Shown here in pieces: positions 24,612 through 61,569 of a stretch of DNA of 64,000 nt. Made by a program: the position numbers and the translations under genes. Within the stretch, counting starts at the first letter, position 1. The number at the start of each line of letters is the position of its first letter. The stretch is from Psammoneis japonica (taxonomy: Eukaryota). The stretch spans positions 744,001-808,000 of the forward strand of contig QPGO01000002.1 of assembly GCA_008632985.1 (NCBI GenBank). Direction: 5' to 3'. Below the pieces are notes generated by a model. It ran no database searches. It worked only from the letters and a program-made list of their open reading frames with translations, and was not told where the DNA came from.

Positions 24612-25351
24612 CAGTCGCGACAAGTGGCGAGAGGTGACAGACAGACGAGACGTGTGCGTGCTTTTTACGCATGCAGCAGCGCCTGCGGGTGCGGAGAGAT
24701 GCGCCCGCGCCGCCACAATGACGATGCGTCTTCAAGTCTGTTGTTGTGCTGCAGAGATGACAGCAAACAGCAATTGCTAAACCCAAGAACCAATGCGAAT
24801 GCAGAATGCTTCTGTTTTTTCTGCTTTTGTCTCTGTGGTCTCTGGATCGCTGGAGGAAGTCTTTTTTTTTGCTGCACAACTGACACAAAGTGCTGCTGTG
24901 CTGCACTCTCAACACTGCTGTTGATGTCAGTGCACATGATGGCCTCTTTCCCTTTGCTGGACATTTTGGCAAAACAGCTCACTTGACATGTTTGTTTGCT
25001 CTGGGCCCACACAAATGTTGTCATCAACACCTGAAAAATGCAGAATGTGCATGTTTGCTTGTGATGATTGTGTGGCATGAATGGAAACACCAGAGCCGCA
25101 CGCAGCACGCTCTCTCTCAAAGATCATGCCCTGCTGCTGGCTGGCCACCCACCAGCATGTTTTGTGCACTCCAGAAACATGCCAGGAATGTGACTTTTCC
25201 TTGCAAGCCTGGGACACCTGCTGCACACCACCAGCTGGTTTTCCTGACTGAGCGCATGAGCCCGCGTCATTTTGTGCAGTGCACACCACCTGTTTTTTCC
25301 AGCACAGGGGTGAGGAAACAAAGGATGCCAGAGCATGGTTGAGCAGCTTTG

Positions 25352-25461
25352 GCAACAACAACAGCAACAACAGCAACAATGGCAACAATGGCAAAAACAG
25401 CAACAACAGGAGCAACAACAGCAACAACAACAGCAACAACAACAGCAACAACAGCAACAAC
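25352..25461 (+). repeat. Imperfect (CAA/CAG)n microsatellite
   Basis: caacaacaacagcaacaacagcaacaatggc...; a shorter counterpart sits at 35458-35488. Confidence 0.85.
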
Positions 25462-27305
25462 ATTTTCTCTGTCCTCGGTTGGTGTCTCTGCATGGTTGCT
25501 GCAGCTGTGGTTTGTTGATCAGAACATTGGACAGATGCCAGCAAAGACTGGGCTTTCAACAAGCAGCTGGCCTGCACAGCTCTCAAGCTCAATGATGGGA
25601 AATGGAGCTTGCTTGTTGCAGCGGGTCTAACACAAATGAGAGTTTCAAAAATGGAGGTGGTTCTTTGTTCAGTTTTCTGGCACCCTCTTCCTCCTCCTCT
25701 CCTCCCCCAACTTTTGATCAACCTTGGTTGAGACAATTTCTCTCTGACATCTGACAAAAACAACAAATGCCACTCAACATGATGGCATTTCTTTCTGGCT
25801 GCCACAACAACAAACAACCAGCTCTGTTGAGAGCCAATCTCCTTTTTTGTGTGTGCATTGTCATTGTTGCTCTGTGCTGCCCACATCGAAGCATGTGCAC
25901 CCACAACAGCAGACCACTCAACATTTGATGCAATGCCCCTCACCTGCCCTGCTCCTTGCTCCTGGCCTCCAGCATGCACACAAAGTGGCTTGAAAAAGTC
26001 ATGGCTGCTTGCTCTAATTGGTCAAGTCAATGGATGCTGAAAAGGGTGCCAAAGCACATTTTTGCCATGGGACAAATTGCCCATTCACTGCCAGATGAGA
26101 AGAACACTGTTGAGTGCTGCTGCCATGTCTTGCTTGAGCTTGTGCTTGTTGCTGGAGAAGACCTTTGCTGGTTGCTGTTGCAAGAATGTGAAAGGAAGAA
26201 GTTGACATCACATGCTGACCCACGCACAATTGACGCTGCTGCCTCTGCTGTTGGACCTCTCTGAGCCATGCTGCAGCGACAAGAAAATTGGACAAAATGC
26301 AAACACTGTGCCACCGGACCCTTGTTGTGTGCATCATGGGCCTGGATGCTGGTGCCTTGGATGTTGTTGTTGCTGTTGTGTGTCCGCACATTGGGCAGTT
26401 GCTTGATGACAAAAGCTGTGCTGTGCAAAGTGAAAGGCCAAATCTGTGCTGTGCAAAGAAGCTCTGAGACCTTGTTGTTGTCATGGCTGGAACCAAAGGC
26501 TCTCATCCTCCACAAAGCAGACAGAAAGCAAACCAGCCAAATCTTTAAGATCAGCTCTGTCACCCAAGTGAAGGAGGCCTTTCATTCTCAAAATGACCAG
26601 CAAAAGGCAAGCTGGCAACAAAATGTTGTTGGAGCAGGAATGGCAAGTTGCACTCTCTTGCAAAACACAAAGAATGAGCTTGCAGAACAGCAACAATGTC
26701 CTCCAAATGCCACACAATGAACACCATCTGCCTCTGCTTTGGCCTGAGCGGCAATGCCAGGCAACCAAAATGCCAAAAAAGCCATGTCTGGCTTTCCCAT
26801 GGGACATGTGGTTGCAAAGATTGAAAGCATCCAGGCTGGCTTTGCCAGGTGCTTGAGAATGGCTTCTCAAGCACCCCTGGTGTGTCGTTCAGCTTCAAGC
26901 TGCATTCCTGAGCAAAGACTCTGTTTGGCGGGTCAAAAACAAGGTCCCAGCACAACTTTCTGTCTTTGCTTTTGTTGTGATTGACCTCATCCAATGCCCC
27001 AGTGACGGCATCAACAAATCCATCAATGGAGTTGCCACGGGTGGACTGATCAACCCCTGACTGTGAGGTGTCAACATTCAGCAATCAACAGACTGCCTCA
27101 ATTGAGTGAAAGGCATCCAAGCCAATCCTTGCAGTCTGGAACAAATGCAACAATGTGGCCACATGCTTGCAAACTTTGTGCCAAGTTCATCATGGAGTGC
27201 AGCTTGCCAATTGATGAGTGTTTTGGTCCATGAAGAGCACATTTTTTGTCTCCTGTGCTGGTTGCAGTTGATGCAAAATTCCATGATTTCCAATCATTGC
27301 TTCTT

Positions 27306-29522
27306 TGTGTGAGCAAGAGGTGTGAGACATGTGTGCAAGACATGTGTGAAATGTGTGCAAGGTGTTTGCAACATGTGTGCAAAATGTTTGAAAGGTGTGT
27401 GGGAGGTTTGAGCAAGACATGTGCAAGTTGTTTGTGGGGCCTGTGCAAAATGTGTGTGCAAAGTGTTTTTGCATGTGTGCAAGGCATGTGCAAGGTGTGT
27501 GTGAAATGTGTTCAAGGTGTGTGCAAGACATGTGCAAAGTGTTTGAAAGGTGTGTGGGAGATGTGTGCAACATGTGTGTGTGTGTGTCTGTGGTGTTTGT
27601 GAGATCTGTGCAAGATGTGTGTGTGACACATTTGCAAGTTGTTTGTGAGATGTGGCAAGATGTGTGTGAGGTGTTTGCAAGACATGTGCAAGTTGTGAGT
27701 TGTGTTCAAGATGTGCATGAGATGTTTGCGAGATGTTTGCAAGATGTGTGTGATGCACTTGTGTGCAAGGTGTTTGCAAGATGATGTGTGCCAGAGGATG
27801 TGTGAGTGTGTGTGAATTGCACAACAGATGTGTGTGGGGTGTTTGGGGGGATGTGTTTGAGCCATGTGCAAGGTGTTTGAGAGATGTGTGCACAATGTGT
27901 GCAAAACATGTGTGTGGTGCATTTGCAAGATGTGTGCATGATGTGTGCAAAATGTGTGTGAGGTGTTTCAGGGGCATTTGGGAGATGTGCACAAGACCTT
28001 TGCAGTGTGTTTGCAAGATGTTTGCATGATGACATCTGTGACGTGTTTTCAAGATGTGTGCAAAGTGCTTGCAAAATGTCTGCTTGACACACACAAGATG
28101 TGTGTCAAATGTGTGTGAGGTGTTTGCAAGATGTGCGCAAATTGTTTGCACAGTGTGCAGGAGTTGTGCATGAGGCATGTGCCAGGTGTTTGCAAGATCA
28201 TGTGCGCAGGTTTTCTGCAAGATGTTTGCCAGATGTGTGCAAGGCGTGTGTTTGAAATGTGTGCAAGATGCACTTGAAACACACAACTTGTGCACAGGGC
28301 ATTTGAGGGATGCACATGAGACCTTTGCAATGTGCTTTCAAGGTGTGTGCATGATGATGTGTGTGACATGTGTGTGGTGTGTTTGCAAGATGTGTGCAAG
28401 GTGTGCTTTCAAGATGTCTGCATGCAAGATGTGTGTGCAAGATGTGTGTCACATGTTTGCAAGGTGTTTGCAAGGTGTGTGCAAATTGTTTGTGAGGTGT
28501 GCAGGAGTTTTGAGGTGTGTGTGAGCTTGTGAGATGCAGGCAAGATTTCTGCAAGATGTGCACCAGATTTTTGTTCAAGAGGTGTGTGAGATGTTTGCAG
28601 AGTGTGCAAGATGTGTGTTGGGTGTGTTTGGGAAATGTGTGCACAAGACACATTCAAGGTGTTTGTGAGATGTGTGCAAGATGTGTGCAACACAAGTGCA
28701 ACATGTTTGTGAGATGTGTGCAAGATGAGGTGCTTGCAAGATGTGCGCAAACTGTGTGCAAGAGTTGTGCACAAGGCATGTGTGAGGCCTTTTGCAAGTT
28801 CTGCTTGCACAGTGTGCATGACACATGTGTGAGGTGTGAAAGATGTGTGCAACATGTGTGTGAGGTGTTTGGGAGATGTGTGTGAAATGTGTGTGAGATG
28901 TGTGCAAAATGTTTGAAAGGTGTGCGGGGGACATGTGCAAGATGTGTGTGAGGTGTTTGGGAGGTGTTTGCAAGTTGTGTGCAAGGTGCTGTGTGTGATG
29001 TGTTTGCAAGATGTGTGCAAGACATGATGTGTGAGGTGTGCAAGCATTGTGCATGATTCATGTGTGAGGTGTTTGCAAAAAGTGTGCAAGATGCATGTGT
29101 GAGGTGTTTGCAAGAGATGTGTGTGCAAGATGTGCATGAAATGTGTGCAAGACATGTCATGGGAGATGTGTGTGCGTGATGTGGCACAACATTTGAAAGA
29201 TGTGTGAGATGTGCACAAGACATGTCTGAGGTGTTTGTGAGATGTGCACAAGACATGTGCAAAGCAAGTGTGGGGGGCTTGGGAGATGTGTGTGAGGCAT
29301 GAGTGAGTTGTTTGCAAGATGTGTGCAAGACATGTGGGAGGGGTGTGTGTGTGTGTGCAATGTGTGAAAAATGTTTGAGAGGTGTGTGAGATGTGCACAA
29401 GACATGCCTGAGGTGTTTGCATGCTGTGTGAAGCAAGTGTGCTGTGCTTGGGAGATGTGTGCGAGGCGCGAGTGAGTTGTTTGCAAGATGTGTTCAAAGT
29501 GCATGTGAGGAGTTTGCAAGAC
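27306..29522. repeat. TG-rich complex satellite block 1 (~11-13-bp monomer GTGTG[CA/TG]AGAT)
   Basis: Continuous gtgtgcaagat / gtgtgtgagat / gtttgcaaggt variants. Confidence 0.92.
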
Positions 29523-31992
29523 CACATGGGCTCTCCAGGAAATCATTGCATTTGCAGCCTGGCGTGGGTCATGATGAGCACAAATCATGTCAGCCAGCAA
29601 GAGGTCAATTGAAAAAAAAAACAGCAGGTTTGGTGCTGCAATGACTTCACAGAGAAGAAGACACTCTTTTTGCATGCACAAAATGTGGGTCAAAACAAAA
29701 AATGTCACTTTCTGGATGAAGCACAGGATCACACCAACAAGCTTCAGAATGAAAAACCTGATCACACATCTTTTTAAATGTGCGGCACATTTTGAAAAAT
29801 GCACTCCCGGGCACTCTTTTTCAAGTGCAGAAATTGTGCTTGACTCTTCCTCACAGGAATGTTTTGTGCATGTCTGGGTTTGCATTTTGTGAGCTGTCCT
29901 TTGGCACACAGAAAAAGTGTGTGTGCACACAGATCCTTGCTTGGACAGAAAGAACCAGCACTCTGGTTGGCTCAATGAATTCCACACAAAATGTCTGGCA
30001 TTGTTGGGCACAGGAGAGGGGCCAGGAAGCATCAACATTGCCCCTGACAGAGCTGGTCTTGGATCAGCAGCCCAAACACATGGGCAATCACTGTGGTTTC
30101 CCACCCAGTCACAGAAACTTTTCAGAGTGCTTCACACACAACAAGCAGTCTTCTGCAAGCTTGGTGACACAGAGTTTGCAGATGGAAATGACTTTCATCC
30201 AAACCAGAGCCAGAGTGCTCAGGGCAGTCAGCTCTGACAGCCTCAAGCTTGTTGGTGATCTGAAATGCCATGTTGAACAATGTTTGGCATGACCCAAGTG
30301 TGTCATCCCCAAACTCTGCACACATCTTCAAGTCGTGCCACAGCCCAGTGTCTGCTTGGACTCAACAGCATCTCTTGCCCAACCTGAAAAAGATCATCTG
30401 AGTTGCTGGCTTGAGAGTTGAAAGATGTGCAGCAGTTGTCATGATGTCTTTTGTTCATCAATGTCAAAAGATCATTGCAAAACACAGGCTGCTGTGGACA
30501 GACTCTTGAAGGCAATGCATTCACACTGAATCTTTTGAGGTTGGCAACATTCTGCTGCATGCAAGAAGGTGCCCTGCCAAAGACAGATGAAACAATGCCA
30601 AACCTCCTTCAAATTCTGGGTCTTGATGCTCATGGTTTCAAGCTTGGCAATCTAAAAGACTTTGTTTGGCAAGGCATGGTGCAACAGAACACATCATCCC
30701 CGAGCTCTGTGCTGGCATCTGCAAGCCCCACCATGTCTGAATGTCTGCTCAGATGCGACAATGCCTTGATCCCAAAGAAGGTCTGCCAGCTGATTGTCCG
30801 CCATTGGCTTGAATTGAGAGATGTGCAGCAGTTGTCATTGTCTTCTTGTTCATGTTGAAAAATTGTTGCAAACCACAAGCCACTCTGGACAGACCTCATG
30901 AAGCAATGCTGTCCAAATCTGTTTGATGTGTTGGCAACATTTTGTGTTGGAGCCATTGTGACTGCCTTGTGAGGCTTCAATTTCACAGAGATCTGTCATT
31001 TCCACTTCATCCCAAAGGGCTCCCTGAAGAGCTGCTCATGCAAGGTGATTTTCTCCTTTGCACATGGAAGCTGGAGGCCATTTGCTTCTACATTGATCTT
31101 CAGAGAGGAAGCACCCAGATGACATCTGCAACACATTGAGCCAAGCTGGATGAGAGTGGGGAACCTGTTCCCACCTTCGAAGGCATCAAGCAACAAAAGA
31201 CAGAACCCTGCTTCATGGGTTGAGACGGAAACAGAGAATTTGTGTGTGCCAGCTCAAGCAAAGATGATGAAGAGAATGAGAGAACAGGTGGCACCACAGA
31301 GATCCAGCTGTGTGCTGATGACGCAATCAAACAAGCCAAAGTGCACCATTGCAAGTGAGTTGAACAGTTTCAGCAAATTTGATTGTCCAGTTGTTGTCAA
31401 AATGCACGCAAGCCTGTCTTGCAAGGTGGAAGGCAAGAACGTTCCCAAAACAGACTGGCCACTTGTGCTCCCTGGTTGGAGAACATGACTCCTTTTAGAA
31501 TTGCAACAATGAAGGTGGATTGGTGCTGTGCTTTTGCACAGATGTGCAATCCCATTGGAAGGAATTGGCTGATTGACGTGCCAACTTGCCTCTGCCGTTT
31601 GATCCTTTGATTCTTGTGACTTTTTTTTCCATGCAGCGAGTGCTGGAAAATCAGATTTGGATTTGCCTCTGCCATTTGATCCTTTGATTCTTGTGACACT
31701 TTGTTCCCCACGCGGCAAGTGCTGGAATCAGATTTGGATTGGAGGTGGTGCAATCCATGTCCGGATGGAGAATGATGCAAGGGATGCTTGTTCCTTGCAT
31801 CTTCAGCATGCCACACATTTGGTCTCAGAGACTGTCACATCAACTTCTTGGGTGTTGTTTCACCCAGGCTCCTCTTGATGTGCCGCGAAGTGATGCGCCA
31901 TGATGAAGAGGCACAGCAGCCAGGACAGCAATTTAGAAAGAGTGCACTGCAACTGTGAACAATGCTTGGATGAGTTGCTTGCTTTGTCGCAA

Positions 31993-32297
31993 CTTTCTGT
32001 GAAACTGCTTGGTGCATGTGAGTGATGAAGGATCATTCCTGCTCTAGAATCAAGGTGCTTGTGTGAATGTTTCTTGAGTCTTCACTTGCTTGCACTGCAG
32101 GTGCAGTCATTTGGAAGTGAGCTCACTGCTGGCAATCTTGTTGATGACATCAAATGTTGAATGGACTGATGTTTTTGGTCTCGGGGGTTCAAGACAACCT
32201 GCAATTGAAAACTCTAGAAACATTCACACAAGTGTCTTGATTCTGGAGTGGGAACGAACCTTTGTCACTCATGCGCGCCAATCAGTTTCACAGAAAA
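31993..32297. repeat. ~95-bp inverted repeat with ~110-bp spacer just upstream of the Penelope-like ORF
   Basis: tttctgtgaaactg...gtgtgaatgtttcttgagtcttcacttg (31993-32088) is the reverse complement of caattgaaaactctagaaacattcacac...cagtttcacagaaa (32202-32297). Confidence 0.9.
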
Positions 32298-32363
32298 GCA
32301 GCACACAGTGTGATGAAAAGCGTCAAATGCATTGGTGGCTCAAGTCTGCAAAAAAGAAAACAA

Positions 32364-34050
32364 GATGGAGCCCGGCGCAGCTTGACTCTCTGACCCCAGT
32401 CCTTCTCTGCCAGTGAAAAACCTGCTTTGTCTGGACTGCAAGAACCCAACTCAAACTGGTGCTTGAAACAGGAACCCCACTGGCAGGAAAGAACAATGCA
32501 GCAAAAGACAATGAAGTGCCAAAAGGAAAAGGAAAAAGGAAATGCCAGCCCCAAGCCTTGAAGACAAGTGGGAAACCATCTGCCAACAGACACAAGAATG
32601 AAGCCAAGAACTGCCACGGAAAAAAAAAGTGGGGATCATGGAGGACAGCACAGAGGCAAGCAAAGAGGAAAGAGAAGCAACAGGCAAAACCAGAGGCAAA
32701 ACTCCTCCACCAAGGAACCATGCTCCCCATCAAAATTGCTGAAAAACAATCCGACCGCTGCTGCATCAGAGTCCATGGTTTCATGCCAAATCCTGACGCC
32801 CCCCTGTGGGAAAATGCAGCAACGGCTGTTGACAAGATGAAAGCCATGGCACACTTCAACCACCTGGACAATGTGTCTTGCCGTGACCTCTGTGCAAAGC
32901 TGCAACCACCGCCTGGCACTGGATTGCTGTAAGAACTTGGACACAAGTTCTGCATAGAATCAAGCACCCCGTTCCAACACAACCACCATGGCACACAACG
33001 CTTCCAGCAAACCATGCATCTGTGGAACTTTGTTGAGAACTCCAAGCTTGCAAACAATGAAGACGGATGCAACCCACACCTGTGCATCCCCTCCAATTTT
33101 GCCCCTCCACAGATTGAAGATGGGGCAACAGAACTTTGAATGATGGACTTTGCAAACAAGACAGACAGAGCCAGTCAAACAGCCAACTGCCAACAACCCT
33201 GCTTTAATTTGATGCCACAGCAGTGCCAAAGACCACAAACATTGCAAAATGACAGACAACTCATCGTGTCCGAGACTCTCACCAAGTCCTTGCCAACTTG
33301 TGATTGCTTGGAAAACTGCCACCAGATGCTGAGCTGTTCACAGTCAATGCAGCAGGAATGTGCAGCAATGTCAATGCCAGCCATGCTCTGGAAACATTCC
33401 ACCAGTGGTTCCTTGAGCACCCTGATGAGATGCAAAAAAACTTCCCAATTGACTTCTTCCTTGCCATGCTGGAAATCATCATGACAAGAAACATCATCCA
33501 GTTTGACAACACCTGCTGGCTCCAAATCAACGGTGCAGCCATGGGTGCCAGTGCAGCCTGCATGTGCACCGCCATGTGCAAGGCTCTCCACGAATGCCAA
33601 AGCATGCTAACCCGACTCAACTTAGACCTGCCCTGTTGTGGATGATTCACAGATGACATGCTTGGTGCATGGACAGGTGGCGAAGGTGAAACATGGGACA
33701 AGTTCAAACACGAACTTAACAACTTTGGCACCTTGGAATGGGAAACCTCCAAGCTCAGTGACCCAGCTGCATTTCTGGATCTTGACATCAAGATGGGAGC
33801 AAACTGGTGCATTGAAACAAGAGCGCACCAGAAGGCCATGAACCTGTGCCTCTACATGCCCCCAAGCTCAACACATCCACCTGGAGTGCTGAGAAGCATT
33901 GTGCATGGAAACCTTTGCACATGTTGGGCACAAAATCCAAACAACAAGGAATGCCAAAAAAACAGTGGCCCAGTTCAGGGCACAGCGGGTTCAGCCAGTT
34001 GGCAGCGGTGTGCTCAAGACCCAAAAACCCAAGAGATGCCCTTGTGTGAA
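32364..34050 (+). mobile_element. Decayed Penelope-like retroelement (reverse transcriptase relic)
   Basis: LPPDAELFTVNAAGMCSNV, LEIIMTRNIIQFDNTCWLQINGAAMGASAAC, WFTDDMLGAW, AFLDLDI, RAHQKAMNLCLYMPPSSTHPPGVLRSIVHG match PLE RT motifs (MYTN, YW.Q..G.AMG, (Y/F).DD, FLD, Y.K...Y....S.HP) with Tyr turned to Cys/His. No GIY-YIG domain seen. Confidence 0.85.
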
Positions 34051-34559
34051 CACCGCTGAAGGAGCCCAACAGGCAGCGTGCTCCAGACATTGTCAAAATG
34101 CTCTCTCATGCACTGGAGCTCTGATTTGGCGAATCCATTGCAATGAGTCACCTCCGGTAAAAAACTCAAACAGGCCACCCACCACGTCACCACGGTGCTG
34201 CGGCTTGTGCCTGTTTTGAGTTTTTTCTGTTTTGTGTTTTGAGTTTGTTCACTTGTGCACTTGCTGCAGCAGAGCATGCTTCCACATCTGGCAGCAGCAG
34301 GAACATCAACTCGCTCTTTCTCAAACACCATTGGAGTTTTTGAGATGGATCTTTCTGATGCTCTTTCAACAACTGCCATGTCAGCTGCAATGACAGCCAT
34401 TGAAAAATGCCGATTTCGAAATTTTCAGCTCGAAAAACAGCCGACAACACTGACGAAGCAAAAGCAAAAGCTCACATCATTGAGCTTTGCATGTCAGGCA
34501 ACTCTTGATGGATTGCTGTTGTGCCAAAGGCTGTCAGTGCATTGGACAACCCCGAAAAC

Positions 34560-34910
34560 AATGCTCTTGGTCTTGATCCAAACACAACAAAATGGCTCCA
34601 TCTTTTTCTTCTGTTGTTGTTTGTTGTTGTTGTTGTTTGTTGTTGAGGTGAACCTCCAATCACACGTGTCAGTGCAGAAACTGTCTCCTGACTTGGAGGA
34701 GGAAGTGCAGCTCCATTTTGATTTGCCATGGTTGGTGGGGTGTGTCTGAGACAATGCTGTGTGGTGCATTGAGATGGCAGCTTCACATCAGTTGTGAGGA
34801 GTGAGTCATCGCAAAAAGTGGCAAGATGTGACAGACAGATGTGTGCATGCTTTTCATGCTCCCAGCAGTGTGTGCAGCATGCAGAGAGATGCTCTGCCCC
34901 GCCACAATGA
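34560..34910 (-). pseudogene. Duplicated, hypermutated 5' fragment of the CCA-adding enzyme gene (homology continues into upstream DNA to ~35765)
   Basis: atgctcttggtcttgatccaaac.. aligns with 24378-24722. It translates as MANQNGAALPPPSQETVSALTRVIGGSPQQQ versus MANQNGTTPPP..SQETVSVPTRVIVGSPQQQ. Confidence 0.9.
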
Positions 34911-35791: not shown

Positions 35792-35796
<5 letters not shown>

Positions 35797-35830
<34 letters not shown>

Positions 35831-36127
35831 NNNNNNNNNNNNNNNNNNNNNNNNNNNNNNNNNNNNNNNNNNNNNNNNNNNNNNNNNNNNNNNNNNNNNN
35901 NNNNNNNNNNNNNNNNNNNNNNNNNNNNNNNNNNNNNNNNNNNNNNNNNNNNNNNNNNNNNNNNNNNNNNNNNNNNNNNNNNNNNNNNNNNNNNNNNNNN
36001 NNNNNNNNNNNNNNNNNNNNNNNNNNNNNNNNNNNNNNNNNNNNNNNNNNNNNNNNNNNNNNNNNNNNNNNNNNNNNNNNNNNNNNNNNNNNNNNNNNNN
36101 NNNNNNNNNNNNNNNNNNNNNNNNNNN
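35797..36127. other. (TG)n run followed by an assembly gap (Ns at 35831-36127)
   Basis: Seen directly. Confidence 0.99.
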
Positions 36128-50900: not shown

Positions 50901-51068
50901 GTTTTTGTTGAAAGATGTAACTTTCAACAGATTTTTGTTGAAAGATCTAACTTTCAACAGATTTTTTTTGAAAGATGCAACTTTCAACAGATTTTTGTTG
51001 AAAGTTCTAACTTTCAACAACTTTTTTGTTGAAAGATCTAACTTTCAACAACTTTTTGTTGAAAGTCG
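50901..51068. repeat. 30-bp tandem array of GTTGAAAG-N6-CTTTCAAC palindromes (right)
   Basis: About 5.5 units read directly. Confidence 0.9.
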
Positions 51069-51388
51069 GTTGTCCGTTGAGTTGTGACCGTAAACTGAAC
51101 ATGCAACATTTGTTGCTGGACATGTTCACATTAGGAAAGGGCAGCAGCATTGTCTTCAACGGACATGTGTTGCAGCGTGCAAAAATGTCCATTTCACCAG
51201 AGTCGTCAGTGGGAATCAGATGCACCGCGCCTGCATGCACGAGCGCGACGGGAGGGACAGCTTCGACTTTCAACAGAATTGAGGCAACTCCCTGTGCTTG
51301 GGAGATGTGTGTGAGGTGTGAGTGAGTTGTTTGCATGATGTGTTCAAAGTGCATGTGAGGTGTTTGCAAGACCACATGGGCTCTCCAG

Positions 51389-52674
51389 CACCATGCGGGA
51401 AAACGGCTCAAATGCGCACATGTTTGCATTCACAACGGACATGAGCAAACACCACACCAAGTGGCATTTGAGAGGGGTCACCCCCTTGTTTGTCCTGGAA
51501 TTGCCGCGCGATTTGAACAAGGCGATTTGTCAGTGTTTGTTTTTGAATGCAAAAATTGTCCACATTCCCACCTGATCGTGCACAAAAACGAAAACCATCG
51601 GCACCGCGATCAAAGCACAACAATGATGCAATCATTGACATTGCTTAAAAACGCAGCGCTCCACCTCCGCACTGTCATCTGACACTGATCATGCAATGCA
51701 TGGCGAGCATGATGCCAATGAGAGTGCAGAGCCAGCACACTTCTGTTGCATGCTTGTGGCTCACAGTTTTCATCACAGTGAAGCACGGAGAAATTCAGAA
51801 AAAATCATGCAAATCATGAGCCATTTGGCCAAATTCAAGCTAAAAAAGCAGCGACCAACCACTCTCAACAGTCATGACTGAGAGTTCCAGTCTTGGCTTT
51901 TTTGACCGAAAGTTTGAGCAATTGTGTCAAACTTGCATCCCCACTTGCTCAAACTTGGCAAGTTTGAGCAATTGCTCAAACTTGCCGCAAGTTTGAGCAC
52001 ATGCTCAAACTTCGAGATTGCTCAAACTTGCGCAAGTTTGAGCAATTGCTCAAAATGCACAAAAAACAAAAAATCCGTGTTGGCATGACGATGCATGGGG
52101 CTGTGACAACAACATAAAGATGGTCTAATGCCGGCACTTGCTGATGATCTGTTTGATGTGTTTTTGACTTGAAACAACAAATGTCAATGCTGAGGCACAT
52201 GTCAATGCCAAGGCACAGTTTGAAAATGTTTTTGATTGAAACAAAAGACAAAATGTTGTCACACGACACTGTGCATTTTTGTGCGTGAGTTTGCATCACA
52301 TGTCTTTCATTGGAATGTTGGGCTTCTTGAAGGCATTGTTGTGGAGAAAATGTCGTTCGTGTCACCATGGTGCGATGGTTGCAATTTTGTTGTTTGTCGC
52401 CAACGGCTGCAAAACCTCATTTTTCCGTTGGATTTACTTTGCACTGACAGCTGCATGCAGTGCAAGTGGCAAGTGCTCAAATTTGCACAAAGTTTGAGCA
52501 ATTCCTCAAACATTGAGCCCCGTTTTCTCAAACATGACATGTTTGAGCAAAAGGTGGCGTTTCAACAAAGCGTGATTCAAGTTGCACATCACAGTGGCCA
52601 CAACGGTGACACATGTTTTTTCAAAATGTTGTCATGCAAAATTCACACGTTTTGAGCAAAATGCCCACACGGTG
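51389..52674. mobile_element. Non-autonomous CACTA/CMC-like TIR element (~1.29 kb), 3-bp CAG TSD, internal GCTCAAA/TTTGAGC repeats
   Basis: CACCATGCGGG (51389) and CCCACACGGTG (ending 52674), with imperfect inverted similarity over ~48 bp. CAG at 51386-51388 and 52675-52677. The empty site ctctc-cag-gaaatc occurs at 29531, 40877, 43446 and 58586. Confidence 0.85.
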
Positions 52675-55600
52675 CAGGAAATCATTGCATTTGCAGCCTG
52701 GTGTGGGTCATGATTGGTGCAAATCATGTCAGCCAGCAAGAGGTCAATTGAAAAAAAAACAGCAGGTTTGGTGCTGCAATGACTTCACAGAGAAGAAGAC
52801 ACTCTTTTTGCATGCACAAAATGTGGGTCAAAACAAAAAATGTCACTTTCTGGATGAAGCGCAGGATCACACCAACAAGCTTCAGAATGAAAAACCTGGT
52901 CACATGTCTTTTTAAATGTGTGGCACATTTTGAAAAATGCACTCCCGGGCACTGTTTTTCAAGTGTAGAATCTGTGTTTGACTCTTCCTCACAGGAATGT
53001 TTTGTGCATGCCTGGGTTTGCATTTTGTGGGTTGTCCTGTGGCACACAGAAAAAGTGTGTGTGCACACAGATCCTTGCTTGGACAGAAAGAACCGGCACT
53101 CTGGTTGGCTCAATGAATTTCACAAAAAATGTCTGGCATTGTTGAGCACAGGAGAGGGGGCAGGAAGCACCAGCATTGCCCCTGACAGAGCTGATCTTGG
53201 ATCAGCAGCCCAAGCACATGGGCAATCACTGTGGTTTCCCACCCAGTCACAGAAACTTTTCAGAGTGCTTCACACACAACAAGCAGTCTTCTGCAAGTTT
53301 GGCAACACAGAGTTTGCAAATGGAAATGACTTTCATCCAAACCAGAGCCTTGAGAGTTGAAAGATGCGCGGCAGTTGTCAGGCCACCATAGACAGACTCT
53401 TGAAGGCAGTGCATTCACTCTGAATCTTTTGAGGTTGGCGACATTCTGCTGCATGCAGCAAGGTGCCCTGCAGAAAACAGATGAAACAATGCCAAACCTC
53501 CTTTAAATTCTGGGTTTTGATGCTCATGGCTTCCAGCTCCTTGGCAATCTAAAAGACTTTGTTTGGCAAGGCATGGTGCAACAGAACACATCATCCCCAA
53601 ACTCTGTGCTGGCATCTGCAAGCCCTGCCATGTCTGAATGTCTGCTGAGATGTGACAATGCCTTGATCCCAAAGAAGGTCTGCCAACGGATTGTCTGCCA
53701 TTGGCTTGAATTGAGAGACATGCTGCAGTTGCCATTGTCTTCTTGTTCATGTTGAAAGATTGTTGCAAACCACAAGCCACTCTGGACAGACCTCATGAAG
53801 CAGTGCTGTCCAAATCTGTTTGATGTGTTGGTGACATTTTGTGCTGGAGCCATTGTGGCTGCCTCACGAGGCTTCAACTTTGCAGAGATCTGTCATTTCC
53901 AGTTCATCCCGAAGGGCTTCCTGAAGAGCTGCTCATGCAAGGCATGCAAGGTGACTTTCTCCTTCACACATGGAAACCAGAGGCCATTTGCTCAGATGAC
54001 ATCTGCAACACATTGAGTCAAGCTGGATGAGAATGGGGAGCCTGTTCCCACTTGCAAAAGCATCAAGCAACAAAAGACAGAACCCTGCTTCATGGGTTAA
54101 GATGGAAACAGAGATTTTGTTTGTGCCAGCTTGAGCAAAGATGATGAAGAGAACGAAAGAAAAGGTTGCACCACAGAGATCCAGCTGTGTGCTGATGATG
54201 CAATCAAACAAGCCAAAGCACACCATTGCAAGTGAGTTGAACAGTTTCAGCAAATTTGATTGTCCAGTTGTTGTTGAAATGCAAGCAAGCCTGTCTTGCA
54301 AGGTGGAAGGCAAGAATGTCCCCAAAACACACATGCTGCTTGTGCTCCCCGGTTGGAACATGACTCCTTCTAGAATTGCAACAACAAAGGTGGATTGGCA
54401 CTGTGCTTTTGCACAGATGTGCAATGCCATTGGAAGGAATTGGCTGATTGACATGCCAACTCGCCTCTGCTGTTTGATCCTTCAATTCTTGTGACTTTTT
54501 CCCCATGTGGCAAGTGCCAGAATCAGATTTGGATTTGGGGTGCAACATGTGTCTGGATGGAGAATGACGCAAGGGATGTTTGTTCCTTGCATCTTCAGCA
54601 CGCCACACATTTGGTCTTGGAGAAGACTGTCACATCAACTTCTTGGGTGTTGTTTTACCCAGGCTCCTCTCAATGTGCCATGAAGTGATGTGCCGCAATG
54701 AAGAGGCGCAGCCAGGACATCAATTTAGAAAAAGAGCGCACTGCAACTGTGTGAACAATGGAGCTTCTTGGACAAGTTGCTTGCTTTGTTGCAACTTTCT
54801 GTGAAACTGCTTGGTGCAAGTGAGTGATGAAGGTTATTCCCACACTAGAATCAAGACACTTGTGTGAATGTTTCTAGAGTTTTCAATTGTCCAGTCCTTC
54901 TCTGCCAGCAGTGAAAAACCTGCTTTGTCTGGACTGCAAGAACCCAACTCAAACTGGTCCTCAAAACAGGAACCCCACTGGCACAAAACAATGATGCAGC
55001 AAAAGACAATGAAGTGCCAAAAGGAAAAGGAAAGTGGAAATGCCAGCCCCAAGCCTTGAAGATGAGTGGGAAACCATCTGCCAACAGACACAAGAATGAA
55101 GCCAAGAACTGCCATGGAAAAAGAAATGGGAATCATGGAGGACAGCACAGAGGCAAGCAAAGAGGAAAGAGAAGCAACAGGCAAAACCAGAGGCAAAACT
55201 CCTCCACCAAGGCACCATGCTCCCCATCAAAATTGCCAAAAAAAATCCAATCGCTGCTGCATCAGAGTCCATGGTTTCATGCCAAATCCTGACGCCCCCC
55301 CTGTGGGAAAATGCAGCAATGGCTGTTGGCAAGATGAAAGCCATGGCACACTTCAACCACCCAGACAATGTGTCTTGCCATGACCTCTGTGCAAAGCTGC
55401 AACCACTGCCCGGCATCTTGGACAAACGACCAGGGCCAGCATCGCAAATGCTCAGGAGACAGTGAGCCACAGACACTGTGATCTTTGCCCTTTAACTCTT
55501 GTCACATTCTTCCACAGGCTTGTGCATGCATGCAAGGACAGCAGCAACTGGCTTGTCTTTGCACTCTTCTTGAAATGGTGCCTTGTTCAGCAGCTCTGAA

Positions 55601-56309
55601 ACTTGCAGCAGGCATTTCCCAGCTGCGGCAACAAGCTTGTTCCAAACTTTGTCATTAAAATCCTTTCACTCTGGCTTCCACACACTGATTTCCTTGTCCC
55701 TGATTTCAAGTGGGTGCACTCACAGCCATTGAATCCTTTGCTGTTTTTTTTGCAGGACAGACCATTGTCTGTGGATGCCAAGATCACAGCATGGGCACAG
55801 TGCACATTTTTGTTCAGCTGCTTCATCCATGAGAATGGCTTCTCAAGCACCCTTGGTGTGTCTTTCAGCTTCAAGCTGTGTTCCTGAGCAAAGCCTCTGT
55901 TGAGCTGGTCAAAAACAAGGTCCCAGCACAACTTTCTGTCTTTGCTTTTGTTGTGATTGACCTCATCCAATGCTCCAGTGATGGCATCAACAAATCCATC
56001 AATGGAGTTGCCATGGGTGGACTGATCAACCTCTGATTGTGAGGTGTCAACATTCAGCAATCAACAGACTGCCTCAATCAAGTGAAAGGCATCCAGCCAA
56101 CCCTCACAGTCTCGAACAAATGCAACAATGTGGCCACATGCTTGCAAACTTTGTGCCAAGTTCATCATGGAGTGCAGCTTGCCAATGCCATGTGTGTCAC
56201 ACACTGTGAGTCCAAGATGAGTGTTTTGGTCCATGAAGAGCACATTTTTTGTCTCCTGTGCTGGTTGCAGTTGATGCAAAATTCCATGATTTCCAATCAT
56301 TGCTTCTTT

Positions 56310-57475
56310 GTGTGAGCAAGAGGTGTGAGACATGTGTGCAAGACATGTGTGAAATGTGTGCAAGGTGTTTGCAACATGTGTGCAAAATGTTTGAAAGGTG
56401 TGTGGGAGGTTTGAGCAAGACACAAGCAAGTTGTTTGTGGGGCCTGTGCAAAATGTGTGTGCAAAGTGTTTTTGCATGTGTGCAAGGCATGTGCAAGGTG
56501 TGTGCAAGATGTGTGCAAAGTGTTTGAAAGGTGTGTGGGAGATTTGTGCAACACATGTGTGTGTCTCTGTGGTGTTTGTGAGATCTGTGCAAGACGTGTG
56601 TGTGGCACATTTGCAAGTTGTTTGTGAGATGTGGCAAGATGTGTGTGAGGTGTTTGCAAGACATGTGCAAGGTGTGAGTTGTGTTCAAGATGTGCATGAG
56701 ACATTTGCAAGATGTTTGCAAGATGTGCGTGATGCATTTGTGCAGTGTGTTTGCCAGATGTGTGTGAGATGTGTGCAAGGTGTTTGCAAGATGATGTGTG
56801 CCAGAGGATGTGTGAGTGCATGTGAAATGCACAACAGATGTGTGTGGGCATTGGGGGGGATGTGTTTGAGCCATGTGCAAGGTGTTTGGGAGATGTGTGC
56901 ACAATGTGTGCCAAACATGTGTGTCATGTGTTTGCAAGATGCACGCAATGTGCTTGCAAGAGGTGTGCATGATGTGTGCAAGATGTGTGTGAGGTGTTTG
57001 TGGGTCATTTGGGAGATGTGTGCAAGACCTTTGCAGTGTGTTTGCAAGATGTTTGCATGATGGCATCTGTGACATGTTTTCAAGATGTGTGCAAAGTGAT
57101 CGCAAAATGTCTGCTTGACACACGCAAGATGAGTGTCAAATGTGTGCAAGGTGTTTGCAAGGTGTGCGCAAAATGTTTGTGAGGTGTGCATGAGCTTGTG
57201 AGATGTGGGAAAGTTGGGTCATGATTGGCACAAATCATGTCAGCCACAACTTGTGCACAGGGCATTTGAAGGATGCACATGAGACCTTTGCAATGTGCTT
57301 TCAAGGTGTGTGCATGATGATGTGTGTGTCACGTGTGTGGTGTGTTTGCAAGATGTGTGCAAGGTGTGCTTTCAAGATGTCTGCATGCAAGATGTGTGCA
57401 CAAGATGTGTTTCAAATGTGTGCAAGGTGTTTGCAAGGTGTGTGCAAATTGTTTGTGAGGTGTGCAGGAGTTTTG

Positions 57476-57519
<44 letters not shown>

Positions 57520-58578
57520 TGGTGTGTGTGAGCTTGTGAGATGTGGGCAAGTTGTCTGCAAGATGTGTGCCAGATTTTTGTGCAAGAGGTGCATGTGAAA
57601 TGTGTGTGAGATGTTGTTTGCAGAGTGTGCGAGATGTGTGTTGGGTGTGTTTTGGAAATGTGTGCACAAGACACATTCAAAAAGTGTGTGCATGAGATGT
57701 GTGCATGATGTGTTCAACACAAGTGCAGTGTGTTTGTGAGATGTGTGCAAGATGAGGTGCCTGCAAGATGTGTGCAAATTGTGTGCAAGAGTTGTGCACA
57801 AGGCGTGTGTGAGGCCTTTTGCAAGTTCTGCTTGCACCAGTGTGCATGACACATGTGTGAGGTGTGAAAGATGTGTGCAACATGTGTGTGAGGTGTTTGG
57901 GAGATGTGTCAGAGATGTGTGTGAAGTGTGTGTGAGATGTGTGCAAAATGTTTGAAAGGTGTGCGGGGGAAATGTGCAAGATGTGTGTGAGGTGTTTGGG
58001 AGGTGTTTGCAAGTTGTGTGCAAGGTGCTGTGTGTGATGTGTGTGCAAGATGTGTGCAAAACATGATGTGTGAGGTGTGCAAGCATTGTGCATGATTCAT
58101 GTGTGAGGCATTTGCAAAAAGTGTGCAAGATGCATGTGTGAGGTGTTTGCAAGAGATGTGTGTGCAAGATGTGCATGAAATGTGTGCAAGACATGTCATG
58201 GGAGATGTGTGTGCGTGATGTGGCACAACATTTGAAAGATGTGTGAGATGTGCACAAGACATGTCTGAGGTGTTTGTGAGATGTGCACAAGACATGTGCA
58301 AAGCAAGTGTGGGTTGATTGGGAGATGTGTGTGAGGCATGAGTGAGTTGTTTGCAAGATGTGTTTGAGACATGTGGGAGATGTGTGTGTGTGTGTGCAAT
58401 GTGTGAAAAATGTTTGAAAGGTGTGCGAGATGTGTGCAAGACATGTCTGAGGTGTTTGTGAGATGTGCGCAAGAAGACATGTGTGAAGCAAGTGTGCTGT
58501 GCTTGGGAGATGTGTGCGAGGCATGAGCAAGTTGTTTCCAAGATGTGTTCAAAGTGCATGTGAGGAGTTTGCAAGACC
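56310..58578. repeat. TG-rich satellite block 4 (includes a (TG)n expansion at ~57477-57530)
   Basis: Same monomer as the other blocks. Confidence 0.92.
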
Positions 58579-61048
58579 ACATGGGCTCTCCAGGAAATCA
58601 TTGCATTTGCAGCCTGGCGTGGGTCATGATGAGCACAAATCATGTCAGCCAGCAAGAGGTCAATTGAAAAAAAAAACAGCAGGTTTGGTGCTGCAATGAC
58701 TTCACAGAGAAGAAGACACTCTTTTTGCATGCACAAAATGTGGGTCAAAATAAAAAATGTCACTTTCTGGATGAAGCACAGGATCACACCAACAAGCTTC
58801 AGAATGAAAAACCTGATCACACATCTTTTTAAATGTGCGGCACATTTTGAAAAATGCACTCCCGGGCACTCTTTTTCAAGTGCAGAAATTGTGCTTGACT
58901 CTTCCTCACAGGAATGTTTTGTGCATGTCTGGGTTTGCATTTTGTGAGCTGTCCTGTGGCACACAGAAAAAGTGTGTGTGCACACAGATCCTTGCTTGGA
59001 CAGAAAGAACCAGCACTCTGGTTGGCTCAATGAATTCCACACAAAATGTCTGGCATTGTTGGGCACAGGAGAGGGGCCAGGAAGCATCAACATTGCCCCT
59101 GACAGAGCTGGTCTTGGATCAGCAGCCCAAACACATGGGCAATCACTGTGGTTTCCCACCCAGTCACAGAAACTTTTCAGAGTGCTCCACACACAACAAG
59201 CAGTCTTCTGCAAGCTTGGTGACACAGAGTTTGCAGATGGAAATGACTTTCATCCAAACCAGAGCCAGAGTGCTCAGGGCAGTCAGCTCTGACAGCCTCA
59301 AGCTTGTTGGTGATCTGAAATGCCATGTTGAACAATGTTTGGCATGACCCAAGTGTGTCATCCCCAAACTCTGCACACATCTTCAAGTCGTGCCACAGCC
59401 CAGTGTCTGCTTGGACTCAACAGCATCTCTTGCCCAACCTGAAAAAGATCATCTGAGTTGCTGGCTTGAGAGTTGAAAGATGTGCAGCAGTTGTCATGAT
59501 GTCTTTTGTTCATCAATGTCAAAAGATCATTGCAAAACACAGGCTGCTGTGGACAGACTCTTGAAGGCAATGCATTCACTCTGAATTTTTTGATGTTGGC
59601 GACATTCTGCTGCATGCAAGAAGGTGCCCTGCAGAAAACAGATGAAACAATGCCAAACCTCTTTCAAATTCTGGGTCTTGATGCTCATGGCTTCAAGCTT
59701 GGCAATCTAAAAGACTTTGTTTGGCAAGGCATGGTGCACAACAGAACACATCATCCCCAAGCTCTGTGCTGGCATCTGCAAGCCCCACCATGTCTAAATG
59801 TCTGCTCAGATGTGACAATGCCTTGATCCCAAAGAAGGTCTGCCAGCAGATTGCCCGCCATTGGCTTGAATTGAGAGATGTGCAGCAGTTGTCATTGTCT
59901 TCTTGTTCATGTTGAAAAATTGTTGCAAACCACAAGCCACTCTGGACGGACCTCATGAAGCAATGCTGTCCAAATCTGTTTGATGTGTTGGCAACATTTT
60001 GTGCTGGAGCCATTGTGACTGCCTTGTGAGGCTTCAATTTCACAGAGATCTGTCATTTCCACTTCATCCCAAAGGGCTCCCTGAAGAGCTGCTCATGCAA
60101 GGTGATTTTCTCCTTTGCACATGGAAGCTGGAGGCCATTTGCTTCTACATTGATCTTCAGAGAGGAAGCACCCAGATGACATCTGCAACACATTGAGCCA
60201 AGCTGGATGAGAGTGGGGAACCTGTTCCCACCTTCGAAGGCATCAAGCAACAAAAGACAGAACCCTGCTTCATGGGTTAAGATGGAAACAGAGAATTTGT
60301 GTGTGCCAGCTCAAGCAAAGATGATGAAGAGAATGAGAGAACAGGTGGCACCACAGAGATCCAGCTGTGTGCTGATGACGCAATCAAACAAGCCAAAGTG
60401 CACCATTGCAAGTGAGTTGAACAGTTTCAGCAAATTTGATTGTCCAGTTGTTGTCAAAATGCATGCAAGCCTGTCTTGCAAGGTGGAAGGCAAGAACGTT
60501 CCCAAAACAGACTGGCCACTTGTGCTCCCTGGTTGGAGAACATGACTCCTTTTAGAATTGCAACAATGAAGGTGGATTGGTGCTGTGCTTTTGCACAGAT
60601 GTGCAACCCCATTGGAAGGAATTGGCTGATTGACGTGCCAACTTGCCTCTGCCGTTTGATCCTTTGATTCTTGTGACTTTTTTTCCATGCAGCGAGTGCT
60701 GGAAAATCAAATTTGGATTTGCCTCTGCCATTTGATCCTTTGATTCTTGTGACACTTTGTTCCCCACGCGGCAAGTGCTGGAATCAGATTTGGATTGGAG
60801 GTGGTGCAATCCATGTCCGGATGGAGAATGATGCAAGGGATGCTTGTTCCTTGCATCTTCAGCATGCCACACATTTGGTCTCAGAGACTGTCACATCAAC
60901 TTCTTGGGTGTTGTTTCACCCAGGCTCCTCTTGATGTGCCATGAAGTGATGCGCCATGATGAAGAGGCGCAGCAGCCAGGACAGCAATTTAGAAAGAGTG
61001 CACCGCAACTGTGAACAATGCTTGGATGAGTTGCTTGCTTTGTTGCAA

Positions 61049-61526
61049 CTTTCTGTGAAACTGCTTGGTGCATGTGAGTGATGAAGGATCATTCCTGCTC
61101 TAGAATCAAGGTGCTTGTGTGAATGTTTCTTGAGTCTTCACTTGCTTGCACTGCAGGTGCAGTCATTTGGAAGTGAGCTCACTGCTGGCAATCTTGTTGA
61201 TGACATCAAATGTTGAATGGACTGATGTTTTTGGGCTCGGGGGTTCAAGACAACCTGCAATTGAAAACTCTAGAAACATTCATACATGTATCTCGATTCT
61301 AGTGTAGGAATGAACCTTATCACTCACGCGCACCAAGCAGTTTCACAGAAAGGCAGTGCACAGTGTGATGAAAAGCGTCAATCGCATTGGTGGCTCAAGT
61401 CTGCAAAAAAGAAAACGAGATGGAGCCCGGTGCAGCTCGACTCCCTAACCCCAGTCCTTCTCTACCAGTAAAAAACCTACTTTATCTGGACTACAAGAAC
61501 CCAACTCAAACCGGTGCTCGAAACAG
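61049..61526 (+). mobile_element. Inverted repeat plus 5' end of the Penelope-like element, truncated at ~61526; right ~250 bp largely unmutated
   Basis: Aligns with 31993-32471; translates MEPGAARLPNPSPSLPVKNLLYLDYKNPTQTGARNR. Confidence 0.8.
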
Positions 61527-61569
61527 AAATAAGCACCACAAAGGGGACTTCAGACTTGAGGCATTTCCT

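Follow-up and report, generated by a model that had tools for sequence, protein, structure and literature searches.

What empties one sharply delimited stretch of DNA of nearly all its TpA and most of its CpG, while the sequence on either side of it looks normal? This question is raised by a 36,541-bp island (including a gap of 297 N) within the 64-kb window, that is, the whole stretch of DNA analysed here. A sequence-only reading had described TA as nearly absent and CG as rare between 24730 and 61270, with normal flanks, and the counts bear this out: the island has 85 TA where about 2,500 are expected (observed/expected ratio, o/e, 0.03) and 366 CG (o/e 0.19), and is rich in TG (5456, o/e 2.04) and CA (3694, o/e 2.03), compared with o/e values for TA and CG of 0.52 and 0.99 in the left flank (1-24729) and 0.69 and 0.88 in the right flank. 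Even the count by eye, which had put TA at about 20 over the first 11 kb, proved exact (20 between 24730 and 35730), and the sliding-window check that had been proposed, carried out within the window, gave a TA o/e of at most 0.16 in each 1-kb window from 25001 to 60001. The TA- and CG-poor, TG/CA-rich island is confirmed as real and extreme. Both borders, at about 24730 and 61270, are sharp to approximately 100 bp, are adjoined by normal DNA and lie within about 100-300 bp of gene ends. At the left border, CG is dense up to 24727, after which just 24796, 24848 and 25097 follow; at the right border, one TA at 61101 precedes the dense TA that begins again at 61271. The gene for the CCA-adding enzyme on the left, whose named best homologues are all from diatoms (identity at most 57%), probably starts, by our reading of the sequence, at an ATG near 24554, with the island beginning about 175 bp upstream; on the right, downstream of the HA-domain gene, the spared segment is found about 40-300 bp past the stop codon (Table 1).

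The island is made of segmental repeats, and duplicated material accounts for two thirds of it. The units of the first satellite array measure about 33, 66 and 74 bp and are based on TGTGTGCAAGATG-like words, while the structure of the inverted repeat at the right border recurs at 31993-32296, with single arms at 45833-45915 and 54795-54876. Two tandem arrays of 30 bp lie within the sub-island at 49400-52700, and a contig of 1902 nt from sequencing run X2 has about 85% identity to 32722-33961. When every later repeat copy was masked, the resulting de-duplicated set of 12,325 bp had 41 TA against 850 expected (o/e 0.048) and 194 CG (o/e 0.28), and the island minus its satellites (24,168 bp) had o/e values of 0.047 for TA and 0.215 for CG. 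In other words, the depletion of TA does not depend on copying, as it persists in de-duplicated sequence.

Coding content was assessed on 93 stop-to-stop ORFs of at least 90 aa, the non-satellite portion of 189 listed. None of the 91 that lie in the island matched Pfam at E<=0.001, and no TE, viral or reverse transcriptase domain was found among them; two weak low-complexity matches (E ~0.005-0.01) occurred among the scanned ORFs, and one island ORF gave a single weak repetitive match among 1.84 billion proteins. Long reading frames are nevertheless common, with 30 of the 33 ORFs of at least 200 aa listed for 24730-64000 falling inside the island: a TA-free island gives rise to long false ORFs that lack tyrosine codons and in which TGA is the only stop. 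The sequence classes that had been named earlier therefore stand in part, as the satellite and the gene relic (34561-35223, from the CCA-adding enzyme gene) were recovered and the retroelement relic was not, with 0 of 91 ORFs matching. The earlier idea that TE coding capacity is being erased likewise goes further than these domain searches allow. Heavy decay could mask the origin of the island DNA.

Table 1. Features of the island and its surroundings (positions within the window)
Feature	Position	Strand	Remarks
CCA-adding tRNA nucleotidyltransferase, left flanking gene	23028..24716	-	Pfam PF01743, E 2e-23; normal composition
Spared left-edge original	24378..24729	.	5' coding end of the gene and CpG-rich upstream region
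TA- and CG-depleted, TG/CA-enriched island	24730..61270	.	Segmental repeats and TG-rich satellite, without recognisable protein domain
TG-rich degenerate satellite array 1	27290..29540	+	GC skew up to +0.39
Interior copy of right edge (61056-61529)	32000..32474	.	
Unique TA-poor stretch between both interior edge copies	32475..34560	.	
Interior relic of left edge	34561..35223	.	Copy of 24378-25049, 74-75% identity
Assembly gap	35831..36127		297 N
TG-rich satellite array 2	38450..43460	+	
TG-rich satellite array 3	47090..49500	+	
Less decayed unique sub-island	49400..52700	.	TA 28 (o/e 0.11), CG 101 (o/e 0.61)
TG-rich satellite array 4	56190..58600	+	
Inverted repeat	61049..61352	.	Arms of ~82 bp (61049-61130, 61271-61352); straddles right border
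Spared right-edge segment	61271..61529	.	TA and CG kept, though homologous to island repeats
Helicase-associated (HA) domain protein, right flanking gene	61573..62619	-	Pfam PF03457, E 5.8e-47; normal composition

The direction of change can be read from segments copied from the flanks, where the original at the edge keeps its TA and CG and its counterpart within the island has been converted. With 24378-24729 as a proxy for the ancestor, the relic of the left edge keeps 0 of 6 ancestral TA and 3 of 26 ancestral CG; the interior copy of the right edge keeps 1 of 12 TA and 3 of 10 CG in the part homologous to 61270-61529. In this polarised set, which is of limited size (18 TA sites and a further 6 sites in 5 copies each) and comes from two edges only, 16 of the 18 TA had become TG or CA, one had become TC and one was kept, and among 36 CG sites 28 had become TG or CA, 2 had changed otherwise and 6 were kept. 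Counted per base, transitions affected 16/36 positions at TA and 28/73 at CG compared with 22/471 (about 5%) elsewhere (TA versus other bases, Fisher test on transitions, p = 9e-11); TA→TG/CA thus stands above other transitions, as the sequence-only reading had expected of a polarised spectrum.

Comparisons between repeat copies place these changes in time and space. In a six-copy alignment, the arm just outside the border retains 6 TA; the five interior copies retain the RTAY, RTAR and YTAY sites in 0/5, and two CTAG sites in 3/5 and 4/5. At two of the lost sites the interior copies divide 3 TG : 2 CA, which indicates independent mutations of one ancestral TA. Of the 125 double differences that ten paralogue alignments contain, 83 are adjacent CA<->TG swaps, with 72 kinds of swap possible and 1-8 adjacent pairs per alignment expected by chance, while CG/TG and CG/CA together account for 120 single differences between island copies, which differ also by indels and transversions. 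TpA conversion happened after the duplications. Within the inverted repeat across the right border, the outer arm is spared and the inner arm converted. The data support a conversion that depends on position rather than on homology between repeats, and a second process, beside CpG decay, that turns TpA into TpG/CpA within a sharp domain; such a domain-bounded process had been proposed before, and both the polarised comparisons and the six-copy alignment speak for it. The two losses are separable, and TA loss can precede CG loss: in 49400-52700, where RTAY numbers 0 and YTAR 16, the o/e of TA is 0.11 and that of CG 0.61.

The TA that remain are unevenly distributed over sequence contexts. Among the 85 in the island there are 57 YTAR, 14 RTAR, 13 YTAY and a single RTAY, compared with 154, 206, 301 and 300, respectively, among 961 in the flanks, and the bias is found in the de-duplicated set (chi-square p = 1.7e-14). 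Retention by 3' base was 0.010 for TAT, 0.029 for TAC, 0.10 for TAG and 0.155 for TAA, loss at TAT/TAC being 4-15 times that at TAG/TAA. For mixed sites, an additive two-strand hazard model predicted 0.026, and 0.040 was observed. Outside the satellites, CA is gained at R__R sites (16.8/kb vs 4.5 for TG) and TG at Y__Y sites (15.3 vs 3.6 for CA), and the context-based rule for direction held at no more than 7 of the 11 polarised sites with mixed context. Long-range strand clustering of TG and CA was sought in the island and none was seen, and there is therefore no sign of processive single-strand patches. CG is lost in all contexts with a 2.4-fold spread, retention being 0.12 at TCG vs 0.29 at GCG.

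We consider it probable that the island belongs to a diatom-lineage nuclear genome as a silent repeat domain devoid of genes, in which two context-specific transition processes would have run in place nearly to completion. The first would be ordinary CpG→TpG/CpA decay, presumably via 5-methylcytosine, and the second a TpA→TpG/CpA hypermutation with the signature found in mutation-accumulation lines of Bigelowiella natans. DNA within the borders would be converted and homologous DNA just outside left alone, and T-A-Y would be preferred over T-A-R, so that RTAY would be erased first and YTAR last, with mixed sites ending as the YTGY/RCAR duplex. The island looks like the end state of TA-directed hypermutation. 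With regard to the chemistry, the sequence-only reading had also named adenine deamination, and this, at T-A-Y, is our best guess and favoured candidate: a deaminase-fold enzyme would convert adenine in DNA to inosine, copied as G; we propose such an enzymatic origin tentatively. Targeting may run through silent chromatin, and the biological role may be defence against repeats or foreign DNA.

The same context rule would arise if thymine were attacked, since T>C at R-T-A is A>G at T-A-Y on the other strand and the two are indistinguishable by sequence. JBP and TET enzymes use T as a substrate, and 5-formyluracil mispairs with G. A TET/JBP-type dioxygenase acting on 5-methylpyrimidines at symmetric Y-R steps (the T in TpA, 5mC in CpG) would produce T>C where 5-formyluracil pairs with G, and C>T from oxidised or deaminated 5mC; a single enzyme would then push both dinucleotides to TG/CA, in line with the loss of both self-complementary Y-R steps into a common sink, the YTGY/RCAR duplex. 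We judge this unlikely, considering that the loss of TA is not tied to that of CG in 49400-52700, and that the sole experimental precedent, in the accessible part of its report, reads the signature as deamination of A, itself likewise unproven.

It is far less probable still that the island is a sequencing or assembly artefact, with modified bases of native DNA miscalled in a sequence that really has TA and CG. While there is no record of the platform used for the assembly or for the public run X1, and the island probably consists of modified DNA, X1 contigs (k=31; perhaps the assembly's own source data and so not independent) show 0-1 differences across 611-1056 bp to single-copy island parts, at a k-mer depth of 63-71 vs 58.8 in the flank, and one of them bridges the left border. 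A base-calling artefact is unlikely because these contigs carry the TA-free sequence at flank depth; exact contigs at single-copy depth are unlike error-prone native-DNA reads, strand-specific miscalls would be expected to give mixed TG/CA/TA/CG and not a clean loss of palindromes, and copies differ by indels and transversions, as in diverged DNA. We give equally little credence to the pol-eta-like WA>WG error-prone patch repair, with T:G mismatches at methylated CpG as its trigger, that the sequence-only reading had put forward. Losses of TA and CG do share domain and borders, yet the expected loss of AA is absent (o/e 1.31 vs 1.19 in the flank, with ancestral AA kept at 41/44 positions of the polarised comparison), TA loss is near-complete where CG depletion is mild, and it depends on the base 3' of A (Y >> R). 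Founder composition or selection, in which a TA/CG-free family was amplified or TA was selected against without any special mutation process, would suit an island that is two thirds duplicated and a satellite unit that is inherently TG-rich; it is hardly credible given that the island's copies of normal flank sequence have lost their TA and CG, that one ancestral TA was resolved differently between copies, and that 12.3 kb of non-redundant sequence is equally depleted. On dsRNA, ADARs prefer a 3' G, whereas the 3' neighbour preferred here is a pyrimidine. A route through RNA, in which repeat transcripts undergo ADAR-like A-to-I editing and are then reverse-transcribed and reinserted, is the least probable of all: the 5' T(U) neighbour agrees with the ADAR preference quoted in the accessible part of 10.64898/2026.01.13.699255, but the changes were made in place and are bounded by position, they occur in non-coding edge copies, satellite and unique DNA, and no reverse transcriptase was found by Pfam among the 91 island ORFs.

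The island, probably the product of CpG decay and TpA hypermutation acting side by side, would be the first diatom-lineage case of TpA hypermutation that we could find. So far a single preprint, on a rhizarian alga and dated 2026, has described this process; a saturated, sharply bounded case in the diatom lineage suggests that it is not peculiar to one species and could be common across an ecologically very important group. Any mechanism is now constrained by the T-A-Y (RTAY) preference, additive two-strand action, independence from CpG loss, positional rather than homology targeting, and borders within about 100-300 bp of gene ends. A simple dinucleotide scan suffices to find such islands, and if a deaminase is responsible, it would represent a naturally occurring enzyme that edits adenine in chromosomal DNA. 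A wider and more doubtful proposal is that in diatoms, and with Bigelowiella perhaps in much of SAR, a chromatin-domain-targeted T-A-Y DNA adenine editor and CpG decay together drive silenced DNA to a TG/CA sink, as an ancient "reverse-RIP" defence whose footprint, if this is true, would be legible from sequence alone. In its boldest form, one dual A/C ADAT2-type deaminase would convert both T-A and (T)-C-G.

How does the island compare with known systems? CpG decay by deamination of 5mC occurs in vertebrate and other methylated transposons, and the island resembles it in that CG became TG/CA at 28/36 polarised sites and in its sharp contrast with the CpG-rich promoter at the border; this process accounts for the CG half only, without TpA loss. 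Fungal RIP is triggered by duplication, mutates both copies and creates TpA through CpA→TpA. The island shares with RIP repeats riddled by transition hypermutation and the logic of genome defence, but TpA is destroyed (o/e 0.03; TA→TG/CA), and the edge originals at 24378-24729 and 61271-61529 are spared, although the duplications in question are short, with 260-350 bp lying outside the island. Among deaminases, amphioxus BjADAT2 has a fold that, in the accessible part of its report (PMC10354150), deaminates both A and C in DNA, with the motif GAA for A and a preference for T 5' of C (TCG); CG loss in the island is somewhat stronger after T, in agreement with the latter, whereas the A motif of the island, T-A-Y with a pyrimidine preferred at +1, differs from GAA. 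Trypanosoma ADAT2 and engineered TadA base editors are further DNA-editing deaminases of the ADAT2/TadA type, cited in the accessible parts of PMC10354150 and 10.64898/2026.01.13.699255.

The sequence-only reading knew of no described mechanism for this signature, but the same signature has been reported by Mettrop et al. (bioRxiv 10.64898/2026.01.13.699255, 2026). According to the accessible text of this preprint, de novo hypermutation of integrated viral DNA in B. natans is A:T>G:C at TpA only: A>G/T>C made up 230/231 mutations in two hypermutable viral regions, the authors state that every one of these GC-biased mutations fell on TpA, the NCLDV target is transcriptionally silent, and an ADAT2-type deaminase is proposed (10.64898/2026.01.13.699255). 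The two systems differ in lineage (a diatom-like stramenopile and a rhizarian), in evidence (a footprint alone here, de novo mutation measured in B. natans), in target (viral in B. natans, without recognisable viral or TE gene here) and in depth of depletion (TA o/e 0.03 vs a Rho of 0.45 in the NCLDV region). CpG co-depletion, borders at gene ends and the RTAY >> YTAR rule set the island apart from the report as far as it is accessible, CpG, flanking bases and diatoms being without mention in that part of its main text (10.64898/2026.01.13.699255). Common to both are TpA→TpG/CpA change by A:T>G:C only, regional confinement, and TpA depletion with CpA and TpG enrichment in clustered 1-kb windows. 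Indeed, with the B. natans footprint cut-offs for 1-kb windows, 36/36 island windows pass, and 0/26 outside.

The region 24730-61270 (the island) contains 85 TA (observed/expected, o/e, 0.03) and 366 CG (o/e 0.19), with TG and CA each at about twice expectation, whereas the window sequence on either side (the flanks) has TA o/e values of 0.52-0.69 and CG o/e values of 0.88-0.99. This bears out the sequence-only reading's observation of a TA- and CG-poor domain set between normal flanks. GC content is nearly constant between island and flanks. TA o/e is at most 0.16 in 36/36 one-kb windows within the island, and 36/36 island windows, against 0/26 outside, pass the cut-offs for "TpA-depleted/CpA+TpG-enriched" sequence taken from a preprint on Bigelowiella natans (B. 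natans). Both borders are sharp: the CpG-rich DNA that precedes the CCA-adding tRNA nucleotidyltransferase (CCA) gene on the left stops at 24727, ~175 bp ahead of the gene's probable start codon, and on the right, TA is back from 61271, ~300 bp downstream of the stop of the helicase-associated-domain (HA) protein gene.

The island is made up of four arrays of degenerate TG-rich satellite, plus segments present 2-4 times at 85-98% identity. Masking all later copies left 12,325 bp with 41 TA versus 850 expected; since the depletion persists in this non-redundant sequence, copying alone is insufficient as an explanation. A 25-nt box occurs identically at four positions (0 expected by chance) and forms the start of 82-bp inverted-repeat arms. 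A search of metagenome contigs for an exact 25-nt box of the island found none.

Positions of features within the window
Feature	Position	Strand	Remark
PUB-domain protein gene			left flank
ArfGAP-PH-ankyrin protein gene			left flank
CCA-adding tRNA nucleotidyltransferase gene	23028-24716	-	left flank
HA protein gene	61573-62619	-	right flank
Ornithine-cyclodeaminase-family protein gene			right flank
Unbroken 1803-aa ORF	3466-8877	+	left flank; internal direct repeat of ~950 bp, 4112-5091 vs 5087-6039, 88% identity
Interior copy	34561-35223		of 24378-25049 (CCA gene 5' end and upstream region)
Interior copy	32000-32474		of 61056-61529 (right edge)
25-nt box	32202-32226		
25-nt box	45904-45928	-	
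25-nt box	54865-54889	-	
25-nt box	61258-61282		right border of island lies inside this copy
30-bp tandem array	49719-49853		less decayed sub-island
30-bp tandem array	50902-51065		less decayed sub-island
X1 contig match	24541-25349		spans left border
X1 contig match	33138-33756		inside island
X1 contig match	33874-34484		inside island
X1 contig match	34652-35707		inside island
X1 contig match	36958-37772		inside island

Each edge of the island also has a copy in the island's interior, and the parts of the edge originals that lie outside the island (24378-24729 and 61271-61529), which have normal composition, were used as ancestral proxies. Among 18 ancestral TA, 1 was kept, 16 had become TG or CA and 1 had become TC; among 36 ancestral CG, 6 were kept, 28 had become TG or CA and 2 had changed otherwise. 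Transitions per base amounted to 16/36 within TA and 28/73 within CG, compared with 22/471 elsewhere (Fisher p = 9e-11, TA vs other). In a six-copy alignment of the 82-bp arm, the copy just outside the right border retains six TA, while four sites outside the YTAR context (R, purine; Y, pyrimidine) are kept as TA in none of the five island copies; the converted inner arm is only ~130 bp away from the spared outer arm. At two of these four sites the copies split into three TG and two CA, which indicates that separate hits, some on one strand and some on the other, changed one and the same ancestral TA once the copies had parted. Ten alignments of paralogues contain 125 adjacent double differences, and 83 of these are CA<->TG swaps, well in excess of chance. 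The aligned pairs share copies, so that the swaps do not amount to 83 independent events, and a swap can also have arisen from CG.

Retention of TA depends strongly on the flanking bases (p = 1.7e-14 on de-duplicated island sequence). YTAR accounts for 57/85 TA in the island versus 154/961 in the flanks, RTAR or YTAY for 27/85 versus 507/961, and RTAY for 1/85 versus 300/961. When both strands are counted, the retained fraction, with the flanks as reference, is 0.010 for TAT, 0.029 for TAC, 0.10 for TAG and 0.155 for TAA; if the two strands are hit independently, each at a rate set by the base 3' of the A, mixed sites are predicted at 0.026, and 0.040 was observed. TA positions that every copy of a family shares belong mostly to YTAR, which marks them as survivors and not as recent gains. 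Outside the satellite, R__R sites of the island gain CA at 16.8/kb versus TG at 4.5/kb, and Y__Y sites show the reverse, so that YTGY/RCAR is the duplex into which CG and TA both drain; among the mixed-context TA sites of the polarised set, which is small, just 7 of 11 follow this rule of direction. The two interior edge copies lean to opposite strands, but strand-coordinated (processive) mutation was rejected as unsupported: lag-1 agreement of the TG and CA signs is 0.505-0.514 versus 0.523 in the flanks, with no excess clustering, and long-range clustering of TG versus CA within the island was not found either.

Homology to the island repeats crosses both borders and conversion halts there, which makes position inside the domain, and not repeat status, the determinant. 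We infer that the process is delimited by putative silent chromatin. In the flank of normal composition, two almost identical tandem copies (9078-10522; 9078-10008 vs 9592-10522, 98.8% identity, period ~514 bp) have normal TA and CG, so that this young repeat outside the island has stayed unconverted. Within the island, the sub-island 49400-52700 has already lost TA (o/e 0.11; RTAY 0/28) but still has a CG o/e of 0.61, so the TA and CG processes are separable. Its ORFs are noise-like. Two tandem arrays lie here whose 30-bp units have a palindrome at their core (TTTCAACA...TGTTGAAA-like), and TA of the CTAA type is retained in every unit.

We consider it likely that the island reflects CpG decay together with a transition mutagenesis like that of B. 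natans, directed at TpA and confined by position, which would have been taken to saturation. The sequence-only reading had proposed just such a position-bounded conversion of TpA to TpG/CpA beside CpG decay, and that part is supported; the undescribed status that it assigned to the process, and its suggestion of pol-eta-type repair, are not. As to the chemistry, enzymatic adenine deamination at T-A-Y is our tentative favourite. Thymine oxidation at TpA ranks behind it as an unlikely alternative, the two being indistinguishable from sequence data. A single dual deaminase with a TCG motif for both conversions is retained only within a bolder, speculative reading, given that the 5' base has little effect on CG retention (0.12 for TCG to 0.29 for GCG, just 2.4-fold). 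Pol-eta-type repair and ADAR-type RNA editing are both disfavoured. So is a founder composition, because the edge copies inside the island have lost TA and CG and the same ancestral TA was resolved differently among copies.

A sequencing artefact, in which modified bases were miscalled, is likewise disfavoured. The stretch is contained in one public run, X1, whose platform is off record and which may be the assembly's own data. K-mer contigs from X1 differ at no more than one position each from the single-copy island sequence that they match, at a depth of 63-71 versus 58.8 on the flank genes; exact 31-mers at this depth imply accurate reads and argue against miscalling. Over the repeated island segments (27337-42000), X1 k-mer depth is 150-550 versus ~60 for single-copy DNA, and since these segments have 3-4 copies within the window, the genome behind X1 appears to have only a small number of additional copies outside the window. 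In a second run, X2 (library type off record), contigs cover the flank genes and not the island, save for one divergent contig of 1902 nt, which matches 32722-33961 at ~85% identity. This contig probably stems from another place in the genome, as a relative that has undergone less conversion or none. Over all matched sequence, transitions make up 155 of 175 differences between X2 and the window.

The window is eukaryotic nuclear DNA. For the CCA enzyme, all best homologues with a named source come from diatoms (Seminavis, Cyclotella, Skeletonema, Thalassiosira and others), at no more than 57% identity, and on this basis the organism is taken to be a diatom or close relative; a protein-guided scan with this enzyme for the loci of relatives gave no confirmed locus. 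The 1803-aa ORF of the left flank has weak Mrr_N and winged-helix (HTH_45) matches. In the island, TGA is the sole stop codon because TAA and TAG are gone. A Pfam scan of 91 island ORFs gave no match at E<=0.001, and an exhaustive HMMER search with the ORF at 32326-33174 gave a single weak match, to a repetitive protein. Among the ORFs of at least 200 aa listed for 24730-64000, 30 of 33 lie in the island, none with a Pfam domain; such long domain-less ORFs are a trap for gene callers. With the island devoid of a recognisable TE or viral gene, the putative defence function is plausible at most.

Fungal RIP differs in that repeat status is decisive there, while position inside the domain is decisive here. 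Our literature search for TpA-destroying mutation found only the preprint on B. natans (Mettrop et al., bioRxiv 10.64898/2026.01.13.699255), and no report for diatoms; the signature for which the sequence-only reading knew of no described mechanism has thus been described, very recently, in another lineage. Two integrated viral regions together acquired 231 mutations in mutation-accumulation lines of B. natans; 230 of them were A>G or T>C, all of these on TpA according to the authors. Mutation rates in these regions exceeded those of the remaining genome ~1000-fold, and the authors put forward an ADAT2-type adenine deaminase as a candidate. The motifs reported for amphioxus ADAT2 on DNA, TCG where C is the target and GAA where it is A (PMC10354150), fit the island pattern only loosely. 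CpG, flanking bases and diatoms go unmentioned in the main text of the B. natans preprint. The new elements here are the lineage, the saturation, the loss of CpG alongside that of TpA, borders that fall at gene ends and a specificity for tetranucleotide context.
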